64,000 nucleotides of DNA from Minisyncoccota bacterium (GCA_018061035.1 JAGOUX010000001.1:6817-70816); one strand, 5' to 3'. Shown: positions 37,781 through 64,000, counted from the first letter of the stretch. Notes: generated from the letters alone by a model not told the origin. Made by a program: numbers and translations.

Positions 37781-37827
37781 TTGACTTAGCTCATATTTGA
37801 TGTAAAGTTCAGTCAGACATTATCCAT

Positions 37828-38088
37828 ATGGGGCACAGCGTCCCAAAAGGAGTACACGTGTGGCATGGACGGAATTACGTTCCCAGTTACCGCTTCATCA
37901 TGCGGTCACCTCGTCCAGGCGAAATGATCCTTGATGAAGTGACCACCTGCGCATCTCTCTTGGAGGCATGTAGATGGGCAGAAATGAATTTCCCGCAAGG
38001 GGGTACGCTGTGGCATGGGGATACAGCAGTTCTTTGTGTTCCTCAGATGAAGTTCGAAGCAGTAAATACGCAAGGGGCGGCGTCGTGA
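37828..38088 (+). CDS. Hypothetical protein in GC-rich island A
   Basis: 86-aa ORF with GC-rich codons in an otherwise AT-rich genome, followed by the GC hairpin GGGGCGGCGTCGTGAGAACGACCCGCCCC. Confidence 0.35.
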   Translation: MGHSVPKGVHVWHGRNYVPSYRFIMRSPRPGEMILDEVTTCASLLEACRWAEMNFPQGGTLWHGDTAVLCVPQMKFEAVNTQGAAS

Positions 38089-38112
38089 GAACGACCCGCC
38101 CCTAAAATATGC

Positions 38113-38802
38113 CTAAGACACAATTACAGTAAATTCCCCTCTTTGCTTTTCAGTATTTTTTACAAAATATTCGAGAACTTCGGCAGGAGTGCCAGTTTTA
38201 AATTCCTCATATATTTTTGTAAGTTCACGGGCAACACACACCTTCTTCTCTGGGCAAAATTTTATTAACGATTCCAAAGTTTTTAAAATTCTGTGGGGAG
38301 ATTCATAAAACACCATTGTCCGCTCTGATGATGCTATTTCTTTAAATAATGTTTCTCTACCCTTTTTGTGCGGTAAAAATCCAAGAAAAGTAAATTCATG
38401 AGTCGGAAGTCCTGAAGCCGAAAGCGCGGTGATCACAGCAGAAGCTCCAGGTATAGGCACCACCTCCACATTTGTAAAGGACTGTCCTTTACAAAATTTT
38501 TCTTTTATTTGTGAGACAAGCATGGCCCCTGGGTCAGATATGCCTGGCGTGCCTGCGTCTGAAACCAATGCCAAATCTTTACCTTCCTCAAGCATTTCAA
38601 AAATTTTATCTGTCTTGGACAACTTACTCTGCGCGTGGTAGCTCATAGTAGGCTTGCTGATAGCGTATTTATTTAAAAGATTTTTAGTTGTACGGGTGTC
38701 TTCGCAGAGTATTAGATCCACACTTTTAAGCGTTTCAATTGCCCGAAGAGTGATATCTCCCATATTGCCTATTGGTGTCGCTATTACATAAAATTTAGAC
38801 AT
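38113..38802 (-). CDS. rsmI: 16S rRNA 2'-O-methyltransferase RsmI-like (tetrapyrrole-methylase fold)
   Basis: N-terminus LYVIATPIGNMGDITLRAIETL; carries the same in-frame palindromic insert as dus. Confidence 0.8.
   Translation of the reverse strand: MSKFYVIATPIGNMGDITLRAIETLKSVDLILCEDTRTTKNLLNKYAISKPTMSYHAQSKLSKTDKIFEMLEEGKDLALVSDAGTPGISDPGAMLVSQIKEKFCKGQSFTNVEVVPIPGASAVITALSASGLPTHEFTFLGFLPHKKGRETLFKEIASSERTMVFYESPHRILKTLESLIKFCPEKKVCVARELTKIYEEFKTGTPAEVLEYFVKNTEKQRGEFTVIVS
38471..38494. repeat. Same 24-bp palindrome inside the rsmI CDS
   Basis: Identical sequence; encodes CKGQSFTN on the minus strand. Confidence 0.85.
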
Positions 38803-38907
38803 AGAAATAATATAGCATATAAATTATTAAAGGGGCCGCAACATACAGTCGCGACCCCTTCGAGATGATCCTCGAGTTTATTTTGTTTGCCCTCGTGGCA
38901 ATAGTGT

Positions 38908-39420
38908 TCAGCGCGGCCTGGAGAGCCAGAGATGAGGCACCAGCTCTTGGAGAGCCTCAGCTTGGGCCTCAGTGAGACCTACAGCCAGCACGGTGCCGAG
39001 CGCCGTCGTCATCAGTTTGGTCTCAGCGAAGGGGTCGCCATCCTGCATCAACCGCCTCCGGTTGAAGGCCGCCACGATGCGTGACGACTCCTCGTTATTC
39101 AGGCAAGGCGTCGTAGAGCTCATGGTGCAGGCCCCGACCAACAACGTCTCCTTTTTATCCGCAAACATCGCGTGGATGAACCAGGCATCCCCACCAGCAT
39201 TTATCTTTGTGACGTCTGTGCCGTACCTGGCCTTCGTCGGCTCGGGCAACAGCAATAGCGCAACGCAAAATGCTGCGCCAACACCACCGACAATCAATGT
39301 AGTGACCGCCAGCCACCACGCGAGGATCTGAGACTGTCCACCCGCCAGCCACTTGATTGAATCCGCCACACAAAAAGTGCAAACAAGCACCACCAACACT
39401 AACACGATCTTTCTGAACAT
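38908..39420 (-). CDS. Hypothetical two-TM membrane protein (GC-rich island B)
   Basis: GC-rich codon usage; likely start at MFRKIVLVLVV; GC hairpin terminator downstream at ~38831-38858. Confidence 0.4.
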   Translation of the reverse strand: MFRKIVLVLVVLVCTFCVADSIKWLAGGQSQILAWWLAVTTLIVGGVGAAFCVALLLLPEPTKARYGTDVTKINAGGDAWFIHAMFADKKETLLVGACTMSSTTPCLNNEESSRIVAAFNRRRLMQDGDPFAETKLMTTALGTVLAVGLTEAQAEALQELVPHLWLSRPR

Positions 39421-39598
39421 TTTTCCCCCTTGAGTTAATATACGATCCAAGATAAAGCACTAAAAATTCAAATATATTAAATTCTTAATGCTTTATCCAA
39501 GATTTTTTATTTTAAATGAGCAAAACATTATACTCTTGTAGTATAGCATAAATTATAGCAAAAGTCAATATTATTGTATTTAAAATAAAACTAATACA

Positions 39599-39629
39599 GG
39601 TCGGAGGAGAATGGTTTTCTCCGCCGACC
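39599..39629 (-). terminator. Rho-independent terminator for the island-B gene 39640..40272
   Basis: 13-bp stem GGTCGGAGGAGAA/TTCTCCGCCGACC, then a U-rich tract on the minus strand. Confidence 0.6.
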
Positions 39630-39639
39630 TGCTGTGTGA

Positions 39640-40272
39640 TTACAAGTGATTTTCAATCCGCAGGGCGGATTTGAAGAACCGGATCTTGTCATGCCGGTTC
39701 TTGGAATTGCAGCCCGCCTGGTACGCCAGGATGGCGTCCTTCTTGCGGACTACTCGCGCATCGGCCTCCAAGTTGGCCACCCGTCGATCTCCCTGCACCG
39801 GCATCGACGAAGCAGGTTCCGGATCAACACCCTTCCGCTGGAGTGACTCGAGAAGGCCGCGGTGCGACTTCTTGTGCTTCTCGGCCGAGCCGTTGTCCTC
39901 GAAGGCGACGAACCACTTCTTGAGTTCGTACAGGTTCCGGCACGCATCGAACCCAAGACGGAGTGCTCGACGTTCGTCCTCCGGCAGGTCGCGCTTGGCC
40001 AAGATCCGCTCGAACCTTGTACGAAACTTTTCCCGTCGTTCGAACGCCACGCGATTCTTCTTAAGGCCCGCGAGACAGGTGTTCACGAAATCGATGGCCT
40101 CCGTGATCACTTCGGGTTTTTTGTCCCCGAGAACCTCGGCGTACTCTGAATAATCCAGAGCCTGCCTAGCCGCTGAAGCCAACGCCGTTTTCAGGATGTT
40201 CATCCTGAGATTGGCGTCGACTTCCCCCCGCAGCCTGTCTGCCTGTGTCAAAAGCTCACTACGTTTCGACAT
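39640..40272 (-). CDS. Hypothetical charged/helical protein (GC-rich island B)
   Basis: 210-aa ORF with strongly GC-biased third codon positions; the antisense ORFs are Arg/Ser-rich artefacts. Confidence 0.5.
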   Translation of the reverse strand: MSKRSELLTQADRLRGEVDANLRMNILKTALASAARQALDYSEYAEVLGDKKPEVITEAIDFVNTCLAGLKKNRVAFERREKFRTRFERILAKRDLPEDERRALRLGFDACRNLYELKKWFVAFEDNGSAEKHKKSHRGLLESLQRKGVDPEPASSMPVQGDRRVANLEADARVVRKKDAILAYQAGCNSKNRHDKIRFFKSALRIENHL

Positions 40273-40315
40273 CTACCCCCCACTGAAAACTGTCAAACAA
40301 CAAACAACAAACAAC

Positions 40316-40346
40316 AAAAAACTAGTATTATTTATACTAGTTTTTT
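40316..40346 (-). terminator. Palindromic terminator after atpC (end of the atp operon)
   Basis: AAAAAACTAGTAT-TATTT-ATACTAGTTTTTT, perfect 13-bp arms flanked by A/T runs (bidirectional), next to an (AACAA)n simple repeat. Confidence 0.65.
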
Positions 40347-40361
40347 GGAAAAAGTCAATCT

Positions 40362-40808
40362 CTATTTTCTATATTTTCGCACCTTCCACTTGTCGGCAAT
40401 TTTTACACGTGTAAGTGATCGTTCGAGCTCAGACACGAAGTGCTCGTAGTCTACATGCTCTTTGTTTTCCATTAGCTTGTGAAGCTCTTCACTTCTCGCT
40501 ATGGCCTGAGCAATCTTTTCATCTCCAAGCTCGGATACATGTTCCGCGAAATCAGCAAGCACAGCAACCTCTGTCTCCCCGTGTGATCCGTGTTTGACTT
40601 CGAGAAATCCGCCAACAATAGCCATAGGTACATGCTCGCCATTTACTACAGCCACAACATCTCCAGATCCAAGAGCGGAAATAAGACCGATATGCTCAGG
40701 CAAGATAGTTATCTCCCCTTCTGTGGTAGGCAAAGAAACCTGATCCACATTTTCTTCGAGAATCAGTTTCTCTGGTGTCACTATCTTTAATTTTATTTGT
40801 TTTGACAT
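40362..40808 (-). CDS. atpC: ATP synthase F1 epsilon subunit
   Basis: Position and sequence in the atp operon. Confidence 0.8.
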   Translation of the reverse strand: MSKQIKLKIVTPEKLILEENVDQVSLPTTEGEITILPEHIGLISALGSGDVVAVVNGEHVPMAIVGGFLEVKHGSHGETEVAVLADFAEHVSELGDEKIAQAIARSEELHKLMENKEHVDYEHFVSELERSLTRVKIADKWKVRKYRK

Positions 40809-40851
40809 AATTTTGAAAAAATTTCAGATTCGAAATTTTTAAAGACCTGAA

Positions 40852-42249
<1,398 letters not shown>

Positions 42250-42276
42250 TTAAACTTAATACTTTCGACTTTATAA

Positions 42277-43182
42277 CTATCCTATGCTTGCCATGCCGGC
42301 GCTGATCTCTGATATTTCTCTGGTAATGTTCGACTGTCTGGCTTTGTTAAATACTAATGTAAGATCATCTATCATTTCTCCCGAAGCTTCTGATGCGTTC
42401 TTCATGGCCATCATTCTACTCGATTGCTCTGAAGCGTTTGATTCAAGGAGCATCTGGTAGATCTGCATTCGAGTGAGCTTCTCTGCAAGTGACTCAATAA
42501 GCTCATCCATATTTCCTTCAAACAAATATGGCGATTCTCCTGTCGGTGTTAAGTCAATTTTCTGATTTTCATTTTTTGCCGTATGGACTATTTCTGTCAT
42601 GTCATCCTTTGATATAGGCAAGAGTTTTCTAATTTTCGGCTTCTGAGTTAATGCTGATATAAAATCTGTATATGCCACATACACTTCCTTATATTTTTCA
42701 CTTTTAAATTCATTTATTAAAAGAGTTGATAGTGGTGCAACATCTGATAGTCGAAGCACCGCTGGTAGATCTGTGAAGGCAGCGAGTACATTTTGTTTTA
42801 CTCGGCGCATTGCCTCATCCCCCTTTTTGCCAACTGAAACAATATCTACCATCGCTGGATCTGCTTGGATCTTTAGCATACTAAGCACCTTTTTAATTAT
42901 CTGAGAATTGTATCCGCCACACAGTGAACCATTCGAAGTGATAAGCACTATAAGAGTGCGTCCTTCTGTTCGATCTACGAAGAATGGGTGGGTTATCTCT
43001 TCGAGTTTATTTGAAAGTGAAGTAAGCAATTCCCATGAATAGCCGGAATAAAGGCGAGAAGAAGTAGCCTGAGCGACAGCTCGGCGCATCTTAGAAGCAG
43101 CCACCAATTCCATTGCTTTGGTGATCTTCTTGGTGTTCTTCACACTTTTTATTCTTCTTTTTATTTCCTTTGTTCCAGCCAT
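42277..43182 (-). CDS. atpG: ATP synthase F1 gamma subunit
   Basis: Position between alpha and beta; gamma-like termini. Confidence 0.85.
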   Translation of the reverse strand: MAGTKEIKRRIKSVKNTKKITKAMELVAASKMRRAVAQATSSRLYSGYSWELLTSLSNKLEEITHPFFVDRTEGRTLIVLITSNGSLCGGYNSQIIKKVLSMLKIQADPAMVDIVSVGKKGDEAMRRVKQNVLAAFTDLPAVLRLSDVAPLSTLLINEFKSEKYKEVYVAYTDFISALTQKPKIRKLLPISKDDMTEIVHTAKNENQKIDLTPTGESPYLFEGNMDELIESLAEKLTRMQIYQMLLESNASEQSSRMMAMKNASEASGEMIDDLTLVFNKARQSNITREISEISAGMASIG

Positions 43183-43258
43183 CCCATTATAAATTTTAAT
43201 TAATAATCTTTCATTATTTTATCCTGCCCGTTCAATTTATAACGGGTCAAGTATAATT

Positions 43259-44761
43259 TTATTTACTGAATGATACTTTGAAATCTGCAATCACTTTCTT
43301 GAGCTCTTCTTCGCCTTTGTCAGTCCACATTTTGCTCTCCTTAACTTCCTTGTAGAAAGTCTTAGCATTACGCTCACTGTATTCGATCAATCCTTTCTCG
43401 AATTCCTTGATTCTATCTACAGCGACATCATCCATGTAGCCTTTTACAAGTGCGTAGAAAGTTACCACTTGGTGCTCGGTCTTTACTGGAGAATATTGAG
43501 CCTGCTTTAGGATCTCAACTGATCTCTTTCCTCTTTCAAGAGATTTCTTTGTAGATTCATCAAGATCAGAACCGAACTGAGAGAAAGCTTCGAGCTCTCG
43601 GAACTGCGCAAGGTCGAGCTTCAAAGTACCTGCAACCTTTTTCATAGCCTTAATCTGAGCAGAAGATCCCACACGAGACACAGATGATCCCACGTTCACC
43701 GCAGGGCGAATACCCTTGTAGAAAAGATCTGTTTCAAGGAAAATCTGTCCATCAGTGATAGAAATAACGTTTGTAGGAATGTATGCAGAGATATCACCAG
43801 CCTGAGTTTCAATGATTGGGAAAGCTGTGATAGATCCGCCTCCATACTTCTCATTTCTTCGGCAGGCTCGTTCAAGAAGTCTTGAGTGCAAATAGAAAAC
43901 GTCTCCAGGGTACGCTTCACGGCCTGGTGGTCGGCGAAGAAGAAGAGAAATTTCTCGGTATGCAACCGCGTGCTTGGAAAGATCATCGTATATGATGAGC
44001 ACATCCTTGCCTTGGTCCATAAAATATTCCGCAATAGAAACTCCGGTATACGGTGCGATATAAGAAAGTGGTGCAGCTTCTGATGCTCCAGCTGAAACGA
44101 TAACTGTATAATCCATAGCTCCACCTTCTTCGAGGCGAACTTGAATCTTTCGAAGCTTTGAATCCTTTTGTCCGATAGATACATAGACACAAATCATATT
44201 CTGACCCTTCTGGTTTAGGATGGCATCGATAGCAAGCGCAGTCTTTCCTGTCTGGCGGTCACCGATGATAAGCTCACGCTGCCCGCGACCCACAGGGATA
44301 ATCGCATCGATAGCCTTGATACCAGTAGCAACTGGCTGATCAACTGACTGTCGTGTTACAACACCAGGAGCAACCTTTTCAATAGGATAAGTTTTGTCAG
44401 CTTTTAGAGCACCCTTACCATCGATTGGGGCTCCGAGTGCATTTACCACACGTCCTAAAATAGCATCCGAAACAGGGACTTCGAGAATTCTACCTGTTGC
44501 CTTAACTTCATCTCCTTCGCGGATCTTAGAGAAATCACCGAGAATAATGACACCCACAGTGTCTTCTTCGAGGTTGAGCGCAACACCAGTCTCACCATTT
44601 GGGAACGAGATCATTTCAGATGAACGGATGTCTGTAAGGCCAGAAACCTTTGCGATACCGTCGAATACCTCGATAACCTTGCCTACCTTCTCAACCTTTG
44701 CATCCATTGCAAAGCCTGCGATCTCTTTTTTTAAATTTTCTACAATGTTGTTGCTACTCAT
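43259..44761 (-). CDS. atpA: ATP synthase F1 alpha subunit
   Basis: Walker A GDRQTGKT. Confidence 0.95.
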
Positions 44762-45168: not shown

Positions 45169-45172
45169 TGTG

Positions 45173-47368: not shown

Positions 47369-48289
47369 TTATTCAATAATCTCACTAACCTTTTCAGCAA
47401 ACTCGTTAATTAAATCCATTGAATATATTATGCCCAAACTTTCATTTTCATCTGAACTCACCATGGAAGGCACACCAATCATACATCCGTCTTTGTCGGT
47501 AGCCAATCCACCAGAGTTTCCATGACTAATCTTCGCTGAAGTATAAATTAAGCCATCACTAGTGAGACTACTTACTACTCCATCAGTAACTGTCAAAGAA
47601 TATCCTCCGCTTATTGAAGGATAACCAAATACACGGATTGGATCTCCTAGCTTAACATTTGTATTCTCGCATATATATTTCGGGAAAGTTCTTGGATACA
47701 CCCCCATGTAGATTTTCTCCTCATCATCATAGTATGCAGAGTAAATTTGCATAAAAGCAAGATCATACTTATCGCTAATCCCTGAAAGCACAATTGGATG
47801 TGCTAGATAATAGTCTTCCGCTTGTCCAGTAATAGCGTCAGACATAACAACCAAACAACCCTCAGTTCCTACATGCAAATCAGTCTCGTCTTGCGGAATA
47901 ATGTGTGAATTAGTAAGAATAATGCCATCATCTGAAATGATTGTACCTGAACCCCCGCTTGTCTCCTCTTCTGGCATTACGCTTGGACAAAAGATATTTA
48001 CTACAGCAGCAGAATTTTTATTCTGACCATACATATCAACAGTATTTATTTTTTCATTTGAGAGTTGCGCCTCAGAGTTATTATTTGATTCAAAAAAATC
48101 ACCTCCATTAATAATAACTATAAGTATGGTAATACCTAAAATAACTGGCACTATAAATTTAGGATTTTTAAAATATTCGCTCAGTTTAATGCTAAACAAG
48201 CTAGCAAAATTTTGTTTCTTTAAATTACCACAGTGTGTGCAAAATTTGTTTCCTAAAGTTATGCCTTTTCCGCAATTTGTACAGAACAT
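47369..48289 (-). CDS. Zinc-ribbon membrane protein with C-terminal trypsin-like serine-protease domain
   Basis: N-terminal CxxC...CxxC (MFCTNCG...KFCTHCGN), TM helix, then TNSHI and GNSGG motifs of the S1 family. Confidence 0.6.
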   Translation of the reverse strand: MFCTNCGKGITLGNKFCTHCGNLKKQNFASLFSIKLSEYFKNPKFIVPVILGITILIVIINGGDFFESNNNSEAQLSNEKINTVDMYGQNKNSAAVVNIFCPSVMPEEETSGGSGTIISDDGIILTNSHIIPQDETDLHVGTEGCLVVMSDAITGQAEDYYLAHPIVLSGISDKYDLAFMQIYSAYYDDEEKIYMGVYPRTFPKYICENTNVKLGDPIRVFGYPSISGGYSLTVTDGVVSSLTSDGLIYTSAKISHGNSGGLATDKDGCMIGVPSMVSSDENESLGIIYSMDLINEFAEKVSEIIE

Positions 48290-48295
48290 AATAAA

Positions 48296-48679
48296 TTAAT
48301 TTAATTTAACCCAAACATACCTTGCTACATTATTAATTATATAAACAGGAGCAATAAATAGCGAAATCACACCCAACCACCCGATGCACAATGTTGTAAG
48401 TGTATATTTCCAAAAATACTTATCTATACAACTTTTGCAGAAATTACCGCGTATTTCTCTATGATACCGCATAACAATAGCACCTCTATTTTCATAAAAA
48501 ACTACATGCGCTAAAGCCTCATTTTGCCCACAAGCCTCACATAGATTGAAATTGTTTTCGTGGAAAAAACTAGATTCATTTTCTACTTCTGCGTCAACTA
48601 AACCTGCAACATTATTTCCACATTTGCCACAAAACTTAGTATTTTTTTCCAGCATACTTCCACATTTATTACAGTACAT
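48296..48679 (-). CDS. Zinc-ribbon domain membrane protein
   Basis: MYCNKCG...KFCGKCGN plus a second CEACG pair, C-terminal TM; paralogous N-terminus to the 47369..48289 gene. Confidence 0.5.
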   Translation of the reverse strand: MYCNKCGSMLEKNTKFCGKCGNNVAGLVDAEVENESSFFHENNFNLCEACGQNEALAHVVFYENRGAIVMRYHREIRGNFCKSCIDKYFWKYTLTTLCIGWLGVISLFIAPVYIINNVARYVWVKLN

Positions 48680-49300: not shown

Positions 49301-49475
49301 CTTCTTTACTTCTTCCCTTTTTCCTAAAAAGGACAAAAAACTATTTTATAAACGTAGAAACTCTTTTTTCGCTAAATGAGAAACTACCCCAAAAGTGTAA
49401 CACAGATTGCTAAAATAGCAATCAAGCAAATTAAATGGCGCCGCATGACCAAGTCAGGCGGCGCCAAATTTTTTG

Positions 49476-49709
49476 CTAATTCTCTAGATCAGAGCTGTCC
49501 CCGTAGTCGATGAGCGGAGGCGGCTCCTCGATATCTGGAACGGCGTCCATTGGGGACGTCTGACGAATGATCGGTACGCGCTCGATCTGTTCGAGCTGCC
49601 GCCTGATCGGGACATTTCCTCGTATAGCCTCTCGATCGAAGAAATCATCCACATCATGTGGCTCTCGACGCGCTCGCGTCACTTTTGCATCATTCCGAAT
49701 GCTACGCAT
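49476..49709 (-). CDS. Hypothetical acidic protein (GC-rich island C)
   Basis: 77-aa GC-rich ORF with the GC hairpin GGCGCCGC...GCGGCGCC plus a T-run downstream. Confidence 0.3.
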   Translation of the reverse strand: MRSIRNDAKVTRARREPHDVDDFFDREAIRGNVPIRRQLEQIERVPIIRQTSPMDAVPDIEEPPPLIDYGDSSDLEN

Positions 49710-49807: not shown

Positions 49808-49836
49808 TTGACAATTTTCAAATATAGTGTAAGAAT
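49808..49836 (+). promoter_or_regulatory. Sigma70-like promoter for the island-C lipoprotein
   Basis: Perfect -35 TTGACA, 17-nt spacer, TGt-AAGAAT extended -10, then the RBS GGAGG 7 nt before the ATG at 49880. Confidence 0.55.
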
Positions 49837-49879: not shown

Positions 49880-50299
49880 ATGAAAGCCAAGACTGCTCTT
49901 TCCATTCTCGTCTTCCTGGCGTTGGGACTCAGCGTCGCCTGCTCGAAGTCTTCACCGACAGCACCGACACCAACCCCGGTCACCTACACGGTGGCTATCA
50001 CCCCGACTGCTTCCACGTTGACCTTCAAGGCCGGCGCGGGCGCTCCGCTGACCTTCACTGCCAGAATCACAGGGAGTGACGGTACCACAGTGGCACCATC
50101 CGCATCTGATGCGGTGGTGATCACCTTCGGCACGTCTGGGGTCGCGACAGCGACGATGCAGACGCCCGTGGCGACCAGCACCAGTCTGATCCAGACCGTC
50201 AGCTTTGGTGGCACGAAGGTCGGCACAACCACGGCAACGGCGACCATGTCCAACCCCAAGTACGTGGGGAACGTCACCGTGACCATCGTCGTGCAATAG
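49880..50299 (+). CDS. Lipoprotein with Ig-like (Big_2-like) Thr/Ala/Val-rich domain, GC-rich codon usage
   Basis: Signal peptide with lipobox LSVA-C; beta-rich T/A/V composition; strong third-position GC bias. Confidence 0.6.
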   Translation: MKAKTALSILVFLALGLSVACSKSSPTAPTPTPVTYTVAITPTASTLTFKAGAGAPLTFTARITGSDGTTVAPSASDAVVITFGTSGVATATMQTPVATSTSLIQTVSFGGTKVGTTTATATMSNPKYVGNVTVTIVVQ

Positions 50300-50319: not shown

Positions 50320-50348
50320 GCGAGAGTCTGCTCACGGCAGACTCTCGC
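50320..50348 (+). terminator. GC hairpin after the lipoprotein gene
   Basis: GCGAGAGTCTGC-tcacg-GCAGACTCTCGC, perfect 12-bp stem, no U-tract. Confidence 0.5.
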
Positions 50349-50600
50349 AATAACACAACGAACATAAGTTCGCATTATCTAAAGTCGTTAGCACCCCAAA
50401 AAAGCGGTACTAACGGCTTTTTTGATTTCTGTTATTTATTTCACAAACTGCAAACTCCTCACTCAAAAAACTTCCAACAACAAACTAACTATTAAAATAT
50501 ATTAAATCCAGATGGCATGCAAAAGGCCCCGTCGACATCTGTCGACGGGGCCGATTTTCTTCGTGCTCAAGCCTACCATTGGTTCTGAATGTGACCAATA

Positions 50601-50930
50601 TCACACCGGCGACATTTCTGCCTCGGAAGAACCATTACTGCTGTTTTTGTGGTGTCGGTGACGCCCTTGATACCTCGCAGGGTACTGGCTTTCGTTTTCG
50701 ACCAAACGTTCGAGAAGAAGGATAAACTTGTCGAGAATGCCGTGCTTATTCATCCGGCGTAATTCGACCATTGCCCAGTACTGGTCCTTATGCGAGAAGA
50801 ACAAATAGACCAGTCGCACACGCAACTTCTTGATTCTTTCTGCTTGTCGCTTTAGGCCTCCCTTTTTACGATGTGGGTATACATGCAGGTCAACACGATC
50901 CCTTTCGCACCGCCTCTGGTTCACATGCAT
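50601..50930 (-). CDS. Hypothetical protein, possible degenerate HNH-like remnant
   Basis: RRCERDRVDLHVYPHRKKGG loosely resembles the C-x2-C...DHxxP..GG segment of HNH nucleases but lacks the second Cys pair; GC hairpin terminator at 50525-50552. Confidence 0.25.
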   Translation of the reverse strand: MHVNQRRCERDRVDLHVYPHRKKGGLKRQAERIKKLRVRLVYLFFSHKDQYWAMVELRRMNKHGILDKFILLLERLVENESQYPARYQGRHRHHKNSSNGSSEAEMSPV

Positions 50931-51021
50931 CAGGTCTTCGCCTTTCGCTTAAACCAAAGTACACCAAGAACTAATTACAAAAATATTCTACATCAGTAAA
51001 AATTTTGTGCAATATAAGATT

Positions 51022-51993
51022 TTATTCCTCGTCTTCTGTTCCCTCTTCTCCAGACTCTAGTGCAGAAAAAATATCTTCCATATAACCTTCGAGTATCTTT
51101 GGCAGATTGTGCCAGGATTTCTTGAGTCTGTGGTCTGTGATTCTGTCTTGTGCGAAATTATAAGTGCGGATTTTTTCTGAACGATCACCAGAACCAATCT
51201 GATTCTTGCGAACACCGGCATACTTGGCAGCTTCCTTTTCTTCTTCGAGCTGTTGAAGCTTGGCCATCAATATACCCATAGCTTTCTCACGGTTTGCTAG
51301 CTGGCTTCGTTCATTAGTAGAACGCACATCTATGCCAGTAGGTTTGTGAATCAATCGCACCGCGGTCTCCACCTTATTCACGTTCTGTCCGCCCTTTCCA
51401 CCAGAGCGAGAATACTCCATTTCAATATCAGAAGGATTAACTTCAAAATTTACTTTTTTGCGGATAGGCAACACTGCGACAGATGCAGTAGAGGTATGCA
51501 CACGGCCGTTTTTCTCGGTAGCGGGCACTCTCTGTACTCGGTGCACGCCTGTCTCATATCGCATCATCTTATATACATCTTTCCCACGTATTTCAAAGCT
51601 GGCTTCTTTATATCCACCTTGGTCACTCTTGGATTCATAATTGGTCTTCCAATTCCATCCTCGCATTTCAGAGAATTTTTCATACATGTGTGCCAGCTCC
51701 CATGCGAACAAAGATGCCTCGTCTCCTCCGGCACCTGCTCGCACTTCTAGGACGATCTCATTTGGAGATTCTTCCTCTTCTTTATCTTTCGCAAGGATAT
51801 CTTCAATCTGACCTTCTACTGCTTCTCGCTCGAGCTGTATGCCCTTCAATTCCTCAGCTGCAAGATCATGCAGTGTCGCATCACCTGCAAGCATTTCTCG
51901 CACTTCTGCCTCCTGACGCATAAGGCGCTCCAAATTTCCTGCGAGATAATTCGTACGGTGGTCTTTCTTTAATTCATCTATATTTAATTCCAT
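51022..51993 (-). CDS. prfA: Peptide chain release factor 1
   Basis: GGQ motif ([13 protein letters not shown]) and the PAT tripeptide (RVPATE) diagnostic of RF1; start taken at MELNIDEL. Confidence 0.85.
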
Positions 51994-54492: not shown

Positions 54493-54623
54493 ACAGACAA
54501 GTATATACAAAAAATTTAAAAAAGCAAATAAAAAAGCCGTCAGTGCTCTTCCGTGGAAGTCTTAACGACTTTGACTATATGGACGCGGTAGGCAAGCCTT
54601 GTTCTGCCTGCCTACCGATATCT

Positions 54624-55070
54624 CTATCCGAACATGACCTCGAAGCCAGCTTCCTTGGCCTCGCGGACGAGGAATGCCTCCGTCATGGAATCATCCCCAA
54701 AACTCGGAAGAAAGAGCTTTGGCGCTGGCTTCTCGTCCGTATTCTTCCGACGGGCACGAGGCCGAGCTGAGACGAGTCCGTGCTCCTTCCACTCGTGCTC
54801 ACCCGTGTACTGAACCAGCCAGAGATACGACGCACCGATGCCAGCCACTTGATGACTCTCTGGGATGTACGGAACGCACGCCCAAGTGCAGCCGTGCAAG
54901 GCCGTACGAAGCTCCGGCAACGGATTGATCCGAAACCGGTAGCCGACATCGAGGTGCGACTGGATCAGTCGAAGCGCGTCCGACAAAACCAAGCGACCCC
55001 CGGGGTCAGGCTGTCCATCCAGCATCGCCATGAGACGATGATGAAAACTACGATTACTCTCTTTGTGCAT
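54624..55070 (-). CDS. Hypothetical protein (GC-rich island D)
   Basis: 148-aa GC-rich ORF; GC hairpin GGTAGGCA...TGCCTACC downstream. Confidence 0.35.
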   Translation of the reverse strand: MHKESNRSFHHRLMAMLDGQPDPGGRLVLSDALRLIQSHLDVGYRFRINPLPELRTALHGCTWACVPYIPESHQVAGIGASYLWLVQYTGEHEWKEHGLVSARPRARRKNTDEKPAPKLFLPSFGDDSMTEAFLVREAKEAGFEVMFG

Positions 55071-55188
55071 GGGGCTCTCCCACAGTCTCGCGGACTAGCT
55101 CACCCTTGGAACGATTCCCTCGAAGCTCTGGTGACGAGCTTGTGCATTACGAAAATTACCATACCACATTTATAGGAAAAAGACAACC

Positions 55189-56901: not shown

Positions 56902-56934
56902 GAAGATAATTATAGCACCTTTATACTTTAGATT

Positions 56935-57910: not shown

Positions 57911-57914
57911 GATT

Positions 57915-59345
57915 TTATTTTAGCATTTCCTTAAGCAACTTTATAACGATCTGTGGGTTGGCTGATCCATTTGATTCTTTGATGACCTTGCCCACGAGTG
58001 ACATTATCGCATTCTCCTTGCCGGCTTTATATGTGGCCACGACTTCGGGATTTGCATCTATCATTTTCTGTACTATCTCTTTGAGCGCTCCTTCATCATT
58101 ACTCTGCAGCATATTCTTTTCGGTCGCTATTTTAAGTGGAGACTCATCAGAAACTACAATCATCGCAAGAATATCCTTGGCTCCACGAGAAGAAATTTTA
58201 CTTTCGGCAATCAAGCCGACAAGCTCCCCAAAATTTAGAGGTGAAGGAAGCTTGGCATTAGAATTTGCCTTCTTGAGTCCCGTAAAGTCAGAGGTAATAT
58301 AGTTTGATGCAATTTTAATTTTTTCCTTGTCGACGAGGATCTTAGAAACTTCTTCGAACCATACTCCGAGCTCAGGATCATTCACATACACTTCGATATC
58401 TTCTGCTTTAATGCCGAAATTATTCATATATCTTTCTCTCTTCTCGGCTGGCAGCTCAGGCAAATTTTTCTTCATAGCCTCGAGATCGAAAGCTTCGTGA
58501 AGTTTCATTTTTGGCAGATCAGGATCGGGGAAATATCGGTAGTCTTCACTGGACTCCTTTTTGCGCTGAGAGAATGTTTTCTGCTTGGCTTCATCCCAGC
58601 CTCGTGTCTCCTTTACTATTTCTTCTTCTTTGCCGGCTTCTATGAGCTCAATCATTCTCTCTATCTCGTATTTGATCGCTTTCTCGACAGTCTTGAATGA
58701 GTTAAGGTTCTTCACCTCGACATAACTCTTGGACATTTTGTTCGGATCAGCAGACACAGAAACGTTCGCCTCTACACGCATCTCACCTTTCTCCATATTC
58801 GCTTCTGAAGCTCCGAGATACCAGAGCAAAAGCTGATACTCTTTCGCGAATACGCTCGCTGCTTTGGCAGCCTCGTCTCCAGTATCAAATGTATGCGCAC
58901 CGGTTACCAGCTCCATCAGTGGCACTCCTGCTCGGTTGAAATCTATCAAAGAGAAATCTCCACGATCATGTTTGTTGTTCGCTGTGTCTTCCTCGAGGTG
59001 TATACGAGTAACTTTCATCCCCGCCAAGGCACCGCCTGAGACTATTGGATATTTGTATTGCGAGATCTGGTAGCCCTTTGGTATGTCGGGATAGAAATAG
59101 TTTTTGCGATCAAATTCAGAAAAGTCCGCGATATTGGCGCCAATTGCTAGACCCACCTTGATCACATTCTCTATTGCCTGCTTATTAGGTACAGGCAGAG
59201 CTCCCGGATGTGCCATGCACACAGGACATATATTAGTATTCGGATTCTCTTCATCAGGATCGTTTTTGCAGGAGCAAAACATCTTGGTTTTGGTCTTAAG
59301 TTCCGCGTGAATCTCAAGTCCAATTGTCGGATAATATTTGGTCAT
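57915..59345 (-). CDS. gatB: Asp-tRNA(Asn)/Glu-tRNA(Gln) amidotransferase subunit B
   Basis: N-terminal IGLEIHAELKT, C-terminal YqeY-like helical domain. Confidence 0.9.
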   Translation of the reverse strand: MTKYYPTIGLEIHAELKTKTKMFCSCKNDPDEENPNTNICPVCMAHPGALPVPNKQAIENVIKVGLAIGANIADFSEFDRKNYFYPDIPKGYQISQYKYPIVSGGALAGMKVTRIHLEEDTANNKHDRGDFSLIDFNRAGVPLMELVTGAHTFDTGDEAAKAASVFAKEYQLLLWYLGASEANMEKGEMRVEANVSVSADPNKMSKSYVEVKNLNSFKTVEKAIKYEIERMIELIEAGKEEEIVKETRGWDEAKQKTFSQRKKESSEDYRYFPDPDLPKMKLHEAFDLEAMKKNLPELPAEKRERYMNNFGIKAEDIEVYVNDPELGVWFEEVSKILVDKEKIKIASNYITSDFTGLKKANSNAKLPSPLNFGELVGLIAESKISSRGAKDILAMIVVSDESPLKIATEKNMLQSNDEGALKEIVQKMIDANPEVVATYKAGKENAIMSLVGKVIKESNGSANPQIVIKLLKEMLK

Positions 59346-59346
59346 T

Positions 59347-60360
59347 TTATTTTTTCTTTAAAATTTTTGCTAATTCATCACCAAACTCCTTCACTGATTC
59401 GTCGTCGAATAGTGACAGTACGAAAACTTTCTTTGCAATCTTTTTAAATTCTTTTTGAACTTTGCTGATTAACTTTGGATCTTCAATCACATCGGTCTTG
59501 GTAAGCACAATGATCTCTTCTTTTTCAGAGAGCCCGTCATCTGAGAGACCGAGATTTTTGTCATACTTTGCAAGCTCTTTTCTGATTTCCTTATACACCT
59601 TTAACATTCCAGCCGGACTGGATGATTTCAGATTCTCGAATGATACGAGGTGCGCTAGCATCTTGGTGCGCTTGATGTGTCGTAGGAATTTTGCTCCCAG
59701 ACCCTTGCCCTCGGATGCACCTTCAATGATACCTGGAATATCTGCGATAATGTACCCATAAAAATCTCCGAGGTTTGGATCGAGTGTAGTGAATGCATAA
59801 TCGCCCACTTTCGCATCGGCATTGGTGATCGAGTTGAGAAGTGAAGACTTGCCGGCATTCGGTAAGCCGATAAGTCCTATATCCGCAAAAAGCTCGAGCT
59901 CGATCTTGAATGTTCCTCTCTCTCCTTCCTGTCCTGGCTTCCATTCCTGTGGAGTAGTATTAACTGAACTTTTGAAATGTTCATTACCGAATCCTCCGTA
60001 GCCACCCTTCAATACCATTATCTTCTCTCCTTCTTCTGTGAGTGTCCATGTTTCATCGGTATCGAGGTTGGTAATGATAGAGCCGATCGGAAGATCAAGT
60101 ACGAAATCCTCGCCATTGGCGCCATGGAGAGATTTGTTTCCGCCATCCTCACCCTTGCCTGCAGCGAAACTCTTCTTGGCTTTATATTTAGAAAGTACAT
60201 GCACATCTCGTACAGCATGCACGTAAAAATTGCCTCCACGTCCGCCGTCTCCTCCGGAAGGTCCGCCTTTGGGTACGAATTTTTCCTGGCGCCATCTAAC
60301 GACGCCATTTCCTCCCTGCCCAGCCTGGGCTTCTATTTTCATTTCATCAATAAATGCCAT
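59347..60360 (-). CDS. obg: GTPase Obg
   Basis: Obg fold Gly-rich N-domain (GQGGNG, GGRGGN) and G-domain motifs GLPNAGKSS and DIPG. Confidence 0.85.
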   Translation of the reverse strand: MAFIDEMKIEAQAGQGGNGVVRWRQEKFVPKGGPSGGDGGRGGNFYVHAVRDVHVLSKYKAKKSFAAGKGEDGGNKSLHGANGEDFVLDLPIGSIITNLDTDETWTLTEEGEKIMVLKGGYGGFGNEHFKSSVNTTPQEWKPGQEGERGTFKIELELFADIGLIGLPNAGKSSLLNSITNADAKVGDYAFTTLDPNLGDFYGYIIADIPGIIEGASEGKGLGAKFLRHIKRTKMLAHLVSFENLKSSSPAGMLKVYKEIRKELAKYDKNLGLSDDGLSEKEEIIVLTKTDVIEDPKLISKVQKEFKKIAKKVFVLSLFDDESVKEFGDELAKILKKK

Positions 60361-60437
60361 CCCGATAGTAAAATTTAAATAATAAGCTCTATACCTACGA
60401 CTCCCGTGCAATCAAAATTTACTACGGGACAGGTATA

Positions 60438-61337
60438 TTATGATTCTAGCGCAATTTGAGCTAATTTGATAGCTCCCTCTTTGGATTGAGCTCCACAAAG
60501 GTAAAGTGCGTTGTGACAAAAAATTGCATCAGACACTCCAGTAACTTTCTGAAATTCTTCTCCCTTTAGTCCACCCCAAGACTTTGGCAGGTCCTTTCTG
60601 TTTTGGAAAGTCTTAATATCAGATCGAATTGCCTTCACTCCCCAGGTGCCATCTGTTTTTCTAGGATAGATAGCATAGAGGGGCTCGGAAAAATTATGAA
60701 GGAAAAATTCAAATGGGTAATTATCATCAAGTACAATTATTCTTTTGTCTTTTGTCTTCTGGTAAATGGCTGTGAGTTTATCCAAGGCAAGCATCATGTC
60801 GCTAGCTTGGATTATTTCTCTGCTTAAAATCATTTTCGCTATATCCACGCATTTTGGAAATATCGCATCTCTATCCTGATCTTCTTCTCGCCAGGTTGGA
60901 TAGAATGCAAAAAATACATGCTGCATTAAATATGGCGCAACTGAAGATGTATTCTTCACAATATCAATACCATTGTCCCAGGAATCTATCGGGCATGCCA
61001 CTTTAAAATCAATCATATCTGCAACCTTATTAGATCCACACAATTCAACTCCGAATTTCTTCCAGACCAATCCAAAGGAAGAATATTTAATGCTGTTCTC
61101 TCTCTGCCCTGCACCCCCTAACTGATGATGGTCAAATCTATTCTTCTCTTGATCATATATACCACCCACATCAAATACATAATCACCTGACGCAATAATA
61201 GATTCATCCCGAGATCGAATTATCTCAAATGTTTCTCCTCTCTTTTCAAGTAGTAATGACAAAGCAGCAGCCGCGAATATATCGTCAGTGTGAAAGGATC
61301 CATTATGTGTTACTAGTTTTTTAATTGGTGTTTGCAT
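60438..61337 (-). CDS. MYG1/UPF0160-family metal-dependent hydrolase
   Basis: THNGSFHTDD and DHHQ motifs. Confidence 0.65.
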   Translation of the reverse strand: MQTPIKKLVTHNGSFHTDDIFAAAALSLLLEKRGETFEIIRSRDESIIASGDYVFDVGGIYDQEKNRFDHHQLGGAGQRENSIKYSSFGLVWKKFGVELCGSNKVADMIDFKVACPIDSWDNGIDIVKNTSSVAPYLMQHVFFAFYPTWREEDQDRDAIFPKCVDIAKMILSREIIQASDMMLALDKLTAIYQKTKDKRIIVLDDNYPFEFFLHNFSEPLYAIYPRKTDGTWGVKAIRSDIKTFQNRKDLPKSWGGLKGEEFQKVTGVSDAIFCHNALYLCGAQSKEGAIKLAQIALES

Positions 61338-61929
61338 CTTCAAATTCTTCAAATAATTCATAAAGCCAGCCGACCATCTTGTCGAATATCATAAAGACAA
61401 TTATGAGTACGAGGATGATCATCGAGAACCTCCATATCTCTCGACTGACATGTAGCGCAGTATAGCTGAAAAAATATCCTAGTGCCATCATAAATGGTGC
61501 CCATATAATAGTAGCCCAAAATTCTGCACGGAGATATTTGCGATAACTTACCCGCTCAAAACCAGAATACAGTATCACGAGATGGTTCGCTCCGAGAATA
61601 AATTTGGAAATAAATATAGACCAAAATGGTTTCCTTTTAAATTTCGGCAATATTCTAGAAACTCTTTTCTGCATATATCTGAAAAATTTACTTTTGTTAT
61701 ATCGCTCATAGCAAAATTTGCCTATGGCATATCCCGCCAAAGTTTTTGTAAATGCTCCTGCTAAAATTATAAAAAATGACGCAGTGGGATTCAGAGCCCC
61801 CAAGTGAGCCAGAATGCCCACAGATATGACAGTCACTTCTCCTTCCAACAATACCCCTACATATATAAGAGCATGTGCTAGTATCGCATGATGCTCTACC
61901 AAACTAATTAGAAGATTTACAGTATGCAT
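61321..61929 (-). CDS. Multi-TM membrane protein (DedA/SNARE-associated-like)
   Basis: 202 aa, 4-5 hydrophobic segments. Confidence 0.35.
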   Translation of the reverse strand: MHTVNLLISLVEHHAILAHALIYVGVLLEGEVTVISVGILAHLGALNPTASFFIILAGAFTKTLAGYAIGKFCYERYNKSKFFRYMQKRVSRILPKFKRKPFWSIFISKFILGANHLVILYSGFERVSYRKYLRAEFWATIIWAPFMMALGYFFSYTALHVSREIWRFSMIILVLIIVFMIFDKMVGWLYELFEEFEDANTN

Positions 61930-62007
61930 CGCAGTACTAAATTTTAAAGTTGTTAATTTGTGTGGTCATATAATGTTCCGTGAATTTAGTACGGGACAAG
62001 TAATATA

Positions 62008-62457
62008 TTAGAAGAGCGAGTCGACGGCTTCTTTTACTGTACTGCCATCCGCTTTGCCTTTGAGATCTTTCATAAGAGCCGACATAAGCATACCCTTTTT
62101 TGTCGGATCTGTGATACCTAGTTCTATTTTTTTTGCTTGTGCTATTGATTTGACTTCATCAAGCTCCATCATTTTTGGCAAGTAAGTCTCTAAGATTGAA
62201 AGTTCTGCCTGCTCTTCGGCCACTAGATCTTCTCGGCCACCCTTTTGGAATTGTTCAATGGAATCTTTGCGCTGTTTTGCGAGCTTGGTGATTACCACCA
62301 TTGCTTCTTCATCAGTGAGCATTTCTTGAGGAGTCTTGCCTTTCACTCCGAGTTCATATGTAAATGCTGCAGACATTGCGCGGAATGCTTTTAATTTTAT
62401 TGCATCTTTGGCCATCATTGCTTCTTTGATGCCTGATTTGATTTGTTCGTGTAACAT
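62008..62457 (-). CDS. GatB/YqeY-domain protein
   Basis: 149-aa YqeY-like helical protein. Confidence 0.7.
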   Translation of the reverse strand: MLHEQIKSGIKEAMMAKDAIKLKAFRAMSAAFTYELGVKGKTPQEMLTDEEAMVVITKLAKQRKDSIEQFQKGGREDLVAEEQAELSILETYLPKMMELDEVKSIAQAKKIELGITDPTKKGMLMSALMKDLKGKADGSTVKEAVDSLF

Positions 62458-62494
62458 GGTTCTATTATATCAAAGTGTGTTAAAATAACCCAAT

Positions 62495-63220
62495 ATGAGC
62501 AAGACTAAAAAACTAATATTTTTTGATACAGAGACCACAGGCATAGGCGACGAGGACCGTTTGTGTCAAATTGCATACAAAATAAATGAGGAAAGCTTTA
62601 TGGGTATGTATAAACCACCTCTTCCTATACCACCTGGTGCATCTGCCGTACATCACATCACCAACGAAATGGTAGAAAGTAAATCATCTTTTATCGAGTC
62701 ATCTGATTTTCAATTAATGAAAGAATTGTTTGAACACCCAGAATCGATATTGATAGCGCACAATATGCCCTTCGATTATGCAATGATAAAAAAAGAAGGT
62801 ATAGAACCCAAGAATACTATCTGTACTCTCCGTGTCGCGAGGCATTTGGATAAAAATGGCAAACTCGCCAAACATAATCTCCAATTCCTGCGCTATGCAC
62901 TCGGAATAGAAATAGAAGCGACAGCACATGATGCTCTCGGTGATGTCCTAGTAATGGAACAATTATTCCAGAGACTTCTAAAAAAGATTGTTGAAGAAGA
63001 GAAAGTCACAGAAAGTGAAGCTATCGAAAAAATGATAGAAATATCTTCCAAGCCTTCCCTGCTTCGAAATATCAGCTTCGGCAAGCATGCTGGTAAAAAA
63101 ATTGAGGAAGTACTACAGACTGACAAAGGATATCTGGAATGGCTATTGTCACAAAAAGAACAAAAACCAAAAGGCGAAGATGACTGGATATACACACTCC
63201 GGCACTATCTCGGCAAATAG
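62495..63220 (+). CDS. DEDDh 3'-5' exonuclease (DnaQ-like) with C-terminal extension
   Basis: Exo I LIFFDTETTG, Exo II, and Exo III with H-x4-D (AHDALGD). Confidence 0.7.
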   Translation: MSKTKKLIFFDTETTGIGDEDRLCQIAYKINEESFMGMYKPPLPIPPGASAVHHITNEMVESKSSFIESSDFQLMKELFEHPESILIAHNMPFDYAMIKKEGIEPKNTICTLRVARHLDKNGKLAKHNLQFLRYALGIEIEATAHDALGDVLVMEQLFQRLLKKIVEEEKVTESEAIEKMIEISSKPSLLRNISFGKHAGKKIEEVLQTDKGYLEWLLSQKEQKPKGEDDWIYTLRHYLGK

Positions 63221-63369
63221 ACTATTAACATAATATAAAATTAGTATCCAATCCTTCACCGAAGAGCCCAATCTCCATCGGTACTTTTTCGTATTTGACA
63301 TTCATACGACTAGAATGCAGAATTGAAACGAGTGTACATCTAAATGGCCATTTTGGCCGGAAAGGTAAT

Positions 63370-63654
63370 ATGGCAGCGATTCCAAAGATTAAGGACGAGG
63401 TGTTCTTCAACGTCAACGAGGAAGGGATCCGCGCAGTTGGGGTCACGAATGAGGCCGGCGTCTTCATCGACGTCATGCCCGAAGAACCTCCTCAGGGCGC
63501 CGACGTGAGCGAAGCCGATCTAGCCAAGTGGCTGGCGGATGAGATCGATCCGACTGGCTTCAGCCAGATTGAGGTCGTGAAGGTCAAAAACGATCCGTTG
63601 ACCTTCAGAATTGATGACGCCAAAACTGGCGAGCTCCTTGACGCCAGCGAGTAG
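63370..63654 (+). CDS. Hypothetical acidic protein (GC-rich island E)
   Basis: 94-aa GC-rich ORF with SD GGAAAGG 5 nt upstream, a TTGACA -35-like hexamer at 63295, and a GC hairpin at 63665-63690 downstream. Confidence 0.4.
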   Translation: MAAIPKIKDEVFFNVNEEGIRAVGVTNEAGVFIDVMPEEPPQGADVSEADLAKWLADEIDPTGFSQIEVVKVKNDPLTFRIDDAKTGELLDASE

Positions 63655-64000
63655 ACAAGAAGATAGGGTGGCGACCACACGGTCGCCACCCTCGCGAGAA
63701 AATATATCAAGCACCGAAGAGCATATGCCCGATCGGTGCTTTCTTCGTTTTACCCTTAATGTGCTAAAATATATGGACTTGTCCCGTTATAAATTTAGCT
63801 CGCGGGATTTTGTAAATAAAGATTATTAATTAAAATTTATAATGGGATGCAAATTATTTGGATATTATTGGGAGTTATCGCAGGAGGCCTAGTAGCATAT
63901 GCTATCCTAGGAAAAAAGAGAGATGATTCAAATGGAGCCAAGGATCAATCCTTACTTCTTCTTCAGCAACAAATGGCCGAGCTCGCGAGAGCCCTTGATT

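Follow-up and report, generated by a model that had tools for sequence, protein, structure and literature searches.

The window analysed here is a stretch of 64,000 nucleotides (GCA_018061035.1 JAGOUX010000001.1:6817-70816) from an AT-rich, ultra-small bacterium of the Candidate Phyla Radiation (CPR), a Nomurabacteria-like member of Candidatus Paceibacterota, and five of its intergenic gaps hold eight small GC-rich open reading frames (ORFs), isl1 to isl8. Judged from sequence and comparative analysis, these islands are rather probably exchangeable cassette slots of the kind known as minimal mobile elements (MMEs), which draw on a clade-restricted pool of fast-evolving orphan genes. Related strains have different, decayed or no genes in the same gaps, which argues for exchangeable slots and against a simple recent import of high-GC DNA. 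Exact protein matches (MBP97114xx) assign the window to a contig of 156,303 bp in a metagenome-assembled genome. The GC content of the whole window is 0.41, and the part from 35 to 64 kb is a housekeeping array, known by homology and gene order, with the genes priA, rsmI, atpCDGAHFEB, two zinc-ribbon proteins, tRNA-Ile, an RRM protein, prfA and rpmE, followed by a lytic transglycosylase, rplY (L25), an FAD-linked oxidase, fructose-bisphosphate aldolase, gatB, obg and others.

Sliding-window GC content and per-ORF statistics reproduce the five islands where a first, sequence-only reading of this DNA had placed them: windows of 200 bp reach a GC content of 0.55-0.63, against 0.41 window-wide. 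The island ORFs have a GC content of 0.49-0.61 and a third-position GC content (GC3) of 0.52-0.74, while the host ORFs (n=60) have 0.402+/-0.036 and 0.350+/-0.060, respectively, with a highest GC3 of 0.49, so GC3 is not uniform and the third-position bias that had been proposed is real. All eight island ORFs exceed all 60 host ORFs (Mann-Whitney U=480, p=1.4e-10), with an offset from the host mean of 9-21 GC points and 17-39 GC3 points, and the first 37 kb of the window contain no ORF of island-type GC. Codon usage, expressed as relative synonymous codon usage (RSCU), is anti-correlated between islands and host (r=-0.42) and is common to the islands (r=+0.60 for isl1-3 versus isl4-8, and 0.91 for two halves of the host), and the island proteins are high in Arg and low in Lys and Ile. 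Any sign of amelioration is absent, as island GC3 equals or tops the value predicted from GC1 and GC2 by the Muto-Osawa and Lawrence-Ochman relations.

Composition of this kind would also be expected from a rival explanation, which is considered unlikely, in which each island is a recent and independent import from a high-GC source (a host bacterium or a phage) that was inserted illegitimately between genes and has not been ameliorated. The nucleotide, codon and amino-acid usage is typical of a genome of about 50-60% GC and is shared by the islands, and GC3 is not depressed with respect to GC1 and GC2, as this rival predicts. However, the larger islands (38.8-40.3 and 49.4-50.9 kb) consist of two or three GC-rich ORFs each, separated by host-like AT-rich spacers with a GC content of 0.22-0.37 that carry promoter-like sites, and no integrase, repeats or target duplications were seen. 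Comparison between islands revealed no border repeats or target duplications beyond a few 11-14-mers, and no mobility genes are apparent at 37-64 kb by homology and gene order, the Pfam scan having covered only part of the window ORFs.

The same gaps were compared in about 160 related loci, which comprise 80 GTDB species loci anchored on rsmI and 80 metagenome loci anchored on prfA. Flanking gene order is kept in them, and the pairs atpC/rsmI, rsmI/priA, prfA/RRM and FAD-oxidase/rplY are adjacent in many of those that have both genes. The atpC-rsmI gap, which is 1,559 bp long in the window, does not exceed 40 bp in about 40 loci, where it is often 2-10 bp; the rsmI-priA gap (332 bp in the window) is 8-40 bp in 23 loci; the prfA-RRM gap (1,685 bp) is about 85-210 bp in most loci; and the FAD-oxidase-rplY gap (678 bp) is 19 bp in L091 and 37 bp in L173. 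For isl7 and isl4-6 the orthologous site is nearly empty in the closest sampled relatives, and such empty gaps in close relatives count in favour of recent import. Other lineages have inserts at these same junctions, some AT-rich and some GC-rich, with no detectable relation to the window genes. Across the clade (133 loci), GC3 is more than 0.15 above that of the locus in 19% of singleton ORFs, compared with 0-2% of conserved genes.

The isl3 and isl6 families, rather than being absent, occupy matching slots in the sister Paceibacteria L171 and L085, respectively. P0020, a relative of isl3, lies in the atpC-rsmI slot of L171 and L172, with a GC3 of 0.64 against about 0.33 in core genes, and P0018, a relative of isl6, lies in the prfA-RRM gap of L085 with a GC3 of 0.60 against about 0.39. 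The L085 homologue of P0020 is located directly downstream of atpC and is followed by a different gene, and in L171 the prfA-RRM gap contains other GC-rich ORFs, as does the region downstream of rsmI. The isl3 promoter, TTGACT-16-TATAAA in the window (40331-40358, minus strand), is alignable in three species (the window, L171/L172 and L085) as TTGACT-16-TATAAA/C, and overlaps a hairpin found by the terminator scan at 40315-40347, the AT-rich atpC terminator. The right boundary of this slot, made of a terminator hairpin about 30 nt before the rsmI start and an AT-rich stretch, aligns between the window and L171. Since both promoter and right boundary can be aligned across species, the atpC-rsmI slot is an old orthologous locus, and the presence of relatives in matching slots of sister species, with promoter and boundary conserved, speaks against recent import.

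Turnover is visible at the level of strains as well, in L174 and L084, which are strains of the window organism. L174 differs from the window by 8.5% in atpC (30 synonymous and 4 non-synonymous codon changes), while isl3 differs at 3 of 633 positions (0.5%; 99.5% identical) and the spacer past isl3 is 1.4% diverged; the near-identical tract is bounded by the start codons of isl2 and isl3. Its isl2 is 18.7% diverged, with 35 synonymous and 39 non-synonymous codons, an intact frame and a GC3 of 0.68. L084 differs from the window by 0-1.6% in host genes, whereas isl5 is 10.7% diverged next to flanks of at most 1.6%, with 29% over 107 bp at its 5' end and 17 synonymous versus 6 conservative changes in its mature part. 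In the same strain isl4 is 3.4% diverged and isl6 is a 101-bp remnant, from which 50819-50991 and 50541-50717 are deleted. Between the related loci L010 and L013, a cassette has a four-fold-site similarity of 0.66 against 0.31-0.54 in its flanking genes, and its homologue in L036 is found at another site. The divergence of cassettes is thus decoupled from that of their flanks in both directions, which points to recombinational exchange within the clade.

Of the 16 differences in prfA between the window and L084, 14 fall within 165 bp (51217-51382). Such clustering suggests that short recombination tracts are not confined to cassettes and also affect core genes.

High GC content also persists in at least one cassette family. 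The P0020 orthologues of L171 and L085 are 72% identical as proteins and their identity at four-fold sites is 0.47, in the range of core genes (0.35-0.48), while the GC content of these sites (GC4) is 0.60-0.61 in both lineages against 0.25-0.32 in most core genes. A gene with core-like synonymous divergence that has kept a GC4 of about 0.6 is unlike one awaiting amelioration, which is a further argument against recent import. The same values would favour another explanation, by which the cassettes are native, vertically inherited and very fast-evolving genes whose GC is maintained in place through biased gene conversion or through selection on the ORF or mRNA, their patchiness being due to repeated loss and their orphanhood to divergence. 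This explanation agrees with the orthologous promoter and boundary at the isl3 slot, with the isl6 of L084 caught in mid-deletion, with family identities of 25-40% between genomes whose core proteins are 64-92% identical, and with the location of all copies that have enough flank to judge on Paceibacterota chromosomes (the 1.2-kb contig of P0019 is too short). It is nevertheless improbable. The contrast between isl3 and atpC, together with an L010/L013 cassette that is younger than its flanks and has its L036 homologue elsewhere, requires lateral exchange, and the closest sampled relatives have empty slots. In addition, a symbiont of small population could hardly sustain selection on hundreds of synonymous sites, and conversion tracts would not be expected to stop sharply where a GC-rich ORF meets an AT-rich spacer.

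The search for homologues was made with HMMER, using the eight island proteins in concatenated form against 1.84e9 representatives, which stand for about 15e9 proteins; apart from the queries and their strain variants, it found no more than three distant relatives. One of these, P0018, has 40% identity to isl6 and is a tandem duplication of the isl6 domain; the others, P0019 and P0020, are 25-30% identical to isl3 over the full length (27-28% in this search). P0019 is found on the 1.2-kb contig L086 (GCA_021733325.1 JAKFZA010038768.1), which at 1,209 bp is too short to be assigned to a genome. This contig (1-1209) repeats the modular plan of the window cassettes, with a GC-rich ORF, a hairpin, an AT-rich promoter of TTGACA type and a second, unrelated GC-rich ORF. 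As the sequence-only reading had anticipated, the island ORFs belong to no recognised family, with no significant match in Pfam, PHROGs, PADLOC or NCBIfam; the best PHROG match is marginal (E 6e-4) and involves only the hydrophobic N-terminus of isl2. The absence of a PADLOC match also led to the rejection of a defence system, and a diversity-generating retroelement was rejected on the ground that the strain substitutions of isl5 are not adenine-specific.

A host bacterium or a phage had been suggested as donor, and this part of the earlier proposal was not upheld. No donor homologue exists outside a Paceibacterota context in the proteins searched, those of the same metagenomes included, and no relative of the island genes was found in IMG/VR contigs, GenBank phages or PLSDB plasmids, which is evidence against recent import. 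Of the horizontal acquisition proposed from a high-GC source, what stands is the foreign, unameliorated composition and the near-empty gaps of most relatives; a recent, direct import does not.

A third explanation, that the islands are an artefact (a chimeric assembly, contamination, or GC-rich non-coding RNA misread as ORFs), is very improbable. The host-island junctions recur in four other assemblies (GCA_020047435.1, Logan SRR11088468, Logan SRR12762291 and JGI 3300043411), some of which represent diverged strains, and this repetition in at least four independent assemblies excludes, at assembly level, the one-off chimera against which a check had been proposed. In favour of an artefact, Logan contigs often end near island borders, structured RNAs are generally GC-rich in AT-rich genomes, and isl1 has no ribosome-binding site, a weak periodicity and a fold z-score of -3.6. 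The other seven ORFs, however, have the pattern GC1>GC2<GC3 or compositional equivalents of it, which weakens an RNA-like alternative, and they look like real coding genes according to their ribosome-binding sites, codon-position GC, frame-preserving variation and protein-level family alignments. For these seven the artefact reading is largely refuted. The Rfam matches of the window that attain the gathering score are limited to four tRNAs, and two island regions gave nothing credible even at E<=1.

Two Logan contigs of the window organism, L087 and L088, end inside prfA or about 30 bp past it, near an island border. Such ends would be the pattern expected from assembly-graph forks between coexisting slot variants.

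According to the favoured reading of the islands as exchangeable slots, accessory genes would be held at fixed junctions of an otherwise syntenic housekeeping array. Seven of the eight ORFs would be self-contained units, in which a promoter-like site within AT-rich DNA and a ribosome-binding site precede a GC-rich ORF, with a GC hairpin after it, and these cassettes, which have no mobility genes, would be gained, swapped, diversified and lost singly. Exchange would occur by DNA uptake between related strains or species, followed by homologous recombination, for which the conserved flanking genes and the boundaries of the slots would provide the matching sequence. The gene pool would be restricted to the clade, and GC-richness would be a permanent trait of the cassettes instead of a sign of recent import. 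Candidate sources of this GC-richness are GC-biased gene conversion at the slots, selection on the ORF or its mRNA, and repeated introduction from an unsampled GC-rich reservoir. A tentative extension, possible although clearly less secure than the slots themselves, is that GC is held in place, so that biased conversion or transcript selection would keep the ORFs, and not the promoters, at 55-60% GC through saturating divergence. If this were so, 'foreign composition' would mislead as a sign of recent transfer in these genomes, and fast-evolving small proteins would be tried out and exchanged through the slots as a dedicated system.

Several points weigh against the exchange of cassettes at slots. 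Homologues of isl1, isl2, isl4, isl5, isl7 and isl8 are confined to their own species, which limits the evidence for exchange between species to the isl3 and isl6 families and the L010/L013 cassette. Some of the clade-wide GC-rich rare ORFs are probably spurious and lie over other GC-rich features, the ancestral empty gap is a majority-rule inference made with no rooted tree, and recombination is deduced from mosaic divergence and clustered substitutions in a handful of metagenomic contigs. The MME model gives no account of GC-richness, and the cassettes of Neisseria are usually of low or ordinary GC. Expression and function of the present cassettes are predictions, and isl1 may not be a protein gene. 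Natural competence and homologous recombination were shown in Saccharibacteria, another class of Patescibacteria (PMC10633639), and competence is demonstrated for that class and not for Paceibacteria.

A terminator-like hairpin is located 3' of every island ORF, and most have a promoter-like site and a ribosome-binding site; these signals are sequence matches, from which expression is presumed. The scan for terminators and promoters covered 37.5-56 kb, and the other sites were read by eye. The GC hairpins quoted in the sequence-only reading do exist (38074-38102, 50525-50552 and 63666-63692) and are among the strongest terminator-like sites of the scanned part, but they follow individual ORFs as terminators and do not bracket the islands. 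The E. coli-like promoters are likewise present as near-consensus sites; they lie in host-like AT-rich DNA and so offer no evidence of a foreign, E. coli-like source.

The first ORF, isl1 (37828-38088, plus strand), has 86 codons, a GC content of 0.53, a GC3 of 0.52 and GC1/2/3 values of 0.59/0.48/0.52. Its promoter-like site, TTGACT-16-TAAAGT (37781-37808, plus strand; 9/12 in the scan), is found in AT-rich DNA just past the priA stop, and the GC hairpin GGGGCGGCGTCGT..ACGACCCGCCCC (38074-38102), read from the sequence and folded on both strands, lies between the convergent isl1 and rsmI and is probably a bidirectional terminator. The weak codon periodicity of isl1, the lack of a visible Shine-Dalgarno sequence and its folding against shuffled sequences make its coding status doubtful, and it may be a small RNA. 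A family of isl1, searched through the motif A..AE..F.GGTL in ORFs of the rsmI-priA gap of other species, was not supported by jackhmmer, and among the small GC-rich ORFs of this gap only those of L005, L042 and L057 form a family.

The isl2 ORF (38908-39420, minus strand; GC 0.58, GC3 0.70) encodes a 170-aa orphan with two N-terminal hydrophobic helices and a soluble domain, for which the search gave self matches only; the idea that it is a diverged C-terminal half of P0020 was rejected, as there is no similarity. Its promoter-like site, TTGACT-17-TG-TATACT (39540-39568, minus strand; 10/12 in the scan), lies within a 169-bp spacer with a GC content of 0.22, and its terminator hairpin (38829-38861, minus strand; 14 pairs, 8 of them G-C) is about 30 nt upstream of the rsmI start codon. 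The isl3 ORF (39640-40272, minus strand; GC 0.58, GC3 0.72) encodes a 210-aa, all-helical and highly charged orphan, which forms a small family with P0019 and P0020 and aligns with them end to end. Its AlphaFold model (pLDDT 74) is a helical bundle with only generic structure matches, and its terminator hairpin, read from the sequence, is CAGGTCGGCGGAGAA..TTCTCCTCCGACCTG, followed by a T-rich tail (39597-39631, minus strand).

The next three ORFs share the prfA-RRM gap. The 77-aa acidic, charged orphan isl4 (49476-49709, minus strand; GC 0.55, GC3 0.55) has only the strain variant P0006 (3 aa changes) and the terminator hairpin GGCGCCGCC..GCGGCGCC (49437-49465, minus strand; read from the sequence). 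It is oriented divergently to isl5 (49880-50299, plus strand; 139 aa, GC 0.61, GC3 0.74), and the 170-bp control region between the two contains the promoter-like site of isl5, TTGACA-17-TG-AAGAAT (49808-49836, plus strand; 10/12 in the scan). The isl5 product, preceded by a GGAGG ribosome-binding site, is a probable lipoprotein with a signal peptide ending in ..LSVAC and a Thr/Ala-rich domain that is probably beta-rich; a GC hairpin, to which the terminator scan assigns no strand, is found 3' of it (50320-50348). The isl6 ORF (50601-50930, minus strand; GC 0.49, GC3 0.57) encodes a 109-aa basic helical orphan, the relative of P0018. Its terminator hairpin GGCCCCGTCGAC..GTCGACGGGGCC (50525-50552, minus strand; 12 pairs, 10 of them G-C) is the top of the scan, and its promoter-like site, TTGCAC-16-TAGAAT (50985-51012, minus strand), was read from the sequence and not flagged by the scan.

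The 148-aa orphan isl7 (54624-55070, minus strand; GC 0.58, GC3 0.65) has only the strain variant P0009 and a poor AlphaFold model. A GC hairpin 3' of it (54587-54616, minus strand; read from the sequence) is followed by an imperfect T-tailed hairpin at about 54530-54572, and its 5' leader (55071-55188, minus strand), with a GC content of 0.50, contains a weak promoter-like site, TTGTCT-17-TATGGT (55158-55186; 8/12 by eye). This leader is unlike the AT-rich spacers upstream of the other cassettes and may be a structured regulatory leader or a piece of a longer ORF or unit. The 94-aa acidic orphan isl8 (63370-63654, plus strand; GC 0.56, GC3 0.71) has only the strain variant P0011 (1 aa change), a promoter-like site TTGACA-17-CAGAAT (63295-63323, plus strand) and a GC hairpin GGGTGGCGACC..GGTCGCCACCC (63666-63692, plus strand), both read from the sequence, with a second, T-tailed hairpin at 63711-63739. 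The products, among them a membrane protein (isl2), a probable lipoprotein (isl5) and several soluble proteins that are small and highly charged, suggest envelope or interaction functions and a fast or diversifying evolution. If the favoured reading is true, the eight genes are a short list of fast-evolving, lineage-specific candidates for interaction with a host or a phage.

The 11-mer CAAGTGGCTGG has exactly three copies in the 64-kb window, each inside an island ORF: 39345-39355 (minus strand) in isl2, 54841-54851 (minus strand) in isl7 and 63525-63535 (plus strand) in isl8. It is read in the same frame in isl2 and isl8 and in a different one in isl7. About 2.1 Mb of related loci contain no copy except those of the same strain; when up to one mismatch is allowed, 6 matches are counted, where shuffled sequences give an expectation of 0.65. 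The 11-mer could be an over-represented oligomer of a donor, a recognition site or a product of chance, and its restriction to islands is a point for recent import.

Further inserts were observed at or near these junctions in other genomes. In L044 (8923-9894) the atpC-rsmI slot holds a GC-rich (0.55) gene for a 323-aa secreted N-acetylmuramoyl-L-alanine amidase (Amidase_3, E=8e-14), which accounts for one Pfam match among ten GC-rich cassette proteins of relatives; it is a plausible foreign gene and to that extent agrees with recent import. The rsmI-priA gap contains a GC-rich element of about 500 bp that is 90% identical between L004 (7620-8386) and L017 (10676-11470) and partly present in L006 (10673-11532). 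It may be an RNA not yet recognised or a conserved gene encoded on the other strand, and the Rfam scan of L004, L006 and L017 gave no family at the gathering score. An identical 86-codon 'ORF' recurs in L128 (14712-14972) and L129 (19865-20125). In L171 (11860-12534) and L172 (2768-3442) rsmI is followed by a GC-rich 69-codon ORF, an AT-rich gene of 107 aa and mreB, and priA is not adjacent to it. Conservation of the 107-aa gene is 76-89% in about 15 further loci in which no priA was detected, and this junction looks like an alternative arrangement in part of the clade.

Two observations concern AT-rich genes. Between atpA and atpG, L171 (6958-7149) and L085 (11923-12117) have a hydrophobic ORF of 63-64 codons with a GC content of 0.25-0.26, so the contents of variable slots can be AT-rich too; it is absent in the window, where the gap is 76 bp. 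In the window, two adjacent AT-rich genes with zinc-ribbon N-termini (47369-48679; 306 and 127 aa) lie between the atp operon and tRNA-Ile. They have no counterpart at that position in L171, L085 or L091 and are lineage-specific genes of host-like composition.

The genomes of CPR bacteria, or Patescibacteria, are tiny and thought to be strongly streamlined, and little is known of the way in which they gain and try out new genes. If the favoured reading is true, a conserved housekeeping array has fixed slots in which orphan genes, taken singly and each with an apparent promoter and terminator of its own, are replaced, diversified and lost at the level of strains. Island detection based on composition and the amelioration clock could also mislead in these genomes, since at least one cassette family has been GC-rich for as long as the core genes have diverged.

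Among known systems, phage morons, as described by Hendrix and colleagues, are reportedly autonomous units of promoter, ORF and terminator between conserved genes, with a deviant composition. The present units have the same organisation, one ORF with promoter and terminator between conserved genes and a composition unlike that of the flanks, but their place is a cellular chromosome, where they are surrounded by genes for ATP synthase, translation and the cell wall; none of these housekeeping neighbours is a prophage gene, and there are no significant matches to PHROGs, IMG/VR or phage DNA. Integron cassettes, and integrase-less clusters of attC sites, are small and mostly orphan ORFs, each followed by an inverted repeat that forms a hairpin, and their composition is often atypical. 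The present ORFs resemble them in being small orphans of atypical composition, each followed by a hairpin. They differ in that each ORF has its own promoter and they are scattered and not arrayed. No integrase is apparent in the region, as judged by homology and gene order, and the attC interpretation was rejected by eye, as the hairpins are short, perfect G+C stems, several of them T-tailed, with no shared sequence or attC-like core.

Species-specific orphans of bacteria are short, rare, lineage-restricted ORFs with signs of purifying selection, whose GC content tracks that of the genome (rho 0.96), those that are phage-like being GC-poorer (PMC11293555). The present ORFs are likewise short, rare and restricted to a lineage, with signs of purifying selection. 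While the orphans of that survey have the GC content of their genome, the present ones are 9-21 GC points above the host mean. Patescibacteria genomes contain islands and singly transferred genes that are mostly exchanged inside the phylum (PMC12455944). Those islands are larger and carry annotated genes (restriction-modification, ribosomal proteins), and single-gene, GC-rich orphan cassettes at fixed junctions are not described there.

The closest similarity is with the MMEs of Neisseria, defined by Saunders & Snyder (2002) and Snyder et al. (2007), as the definition is quoted in PMC3082526. In the terms quoted there, a conserved pair of genes encloses differing whole-gene cassettes, or nothing, across strains and species; the cassettes have no mobility genes, and transformation with homologous recombination in the flanks is held responsible. 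The window likewise has conserved flanking pairs, variable whole-gene content and single-ORF cassettes with no self-mobility function. Unlike the naturally competent Neisseria, the present host is an uncultured CPR bacterium of undemonstrated competence. Its cassettes consist of one small orphan gene apiece, which has a promoter and a terminator to itself, and their GC content is strongly and persistently above that of the genome; the slot boundaries (promoter and terminator) are conserved across species as well. The lasting GC-richness of the orphan ORFs falls outside the MME model in what is otherwise an unusually clean example of accessory-gene slots in a CPR genome. If this reading is true, a mechanism of competent Neisseria would extend to uncultured, ultra-small bacteria.

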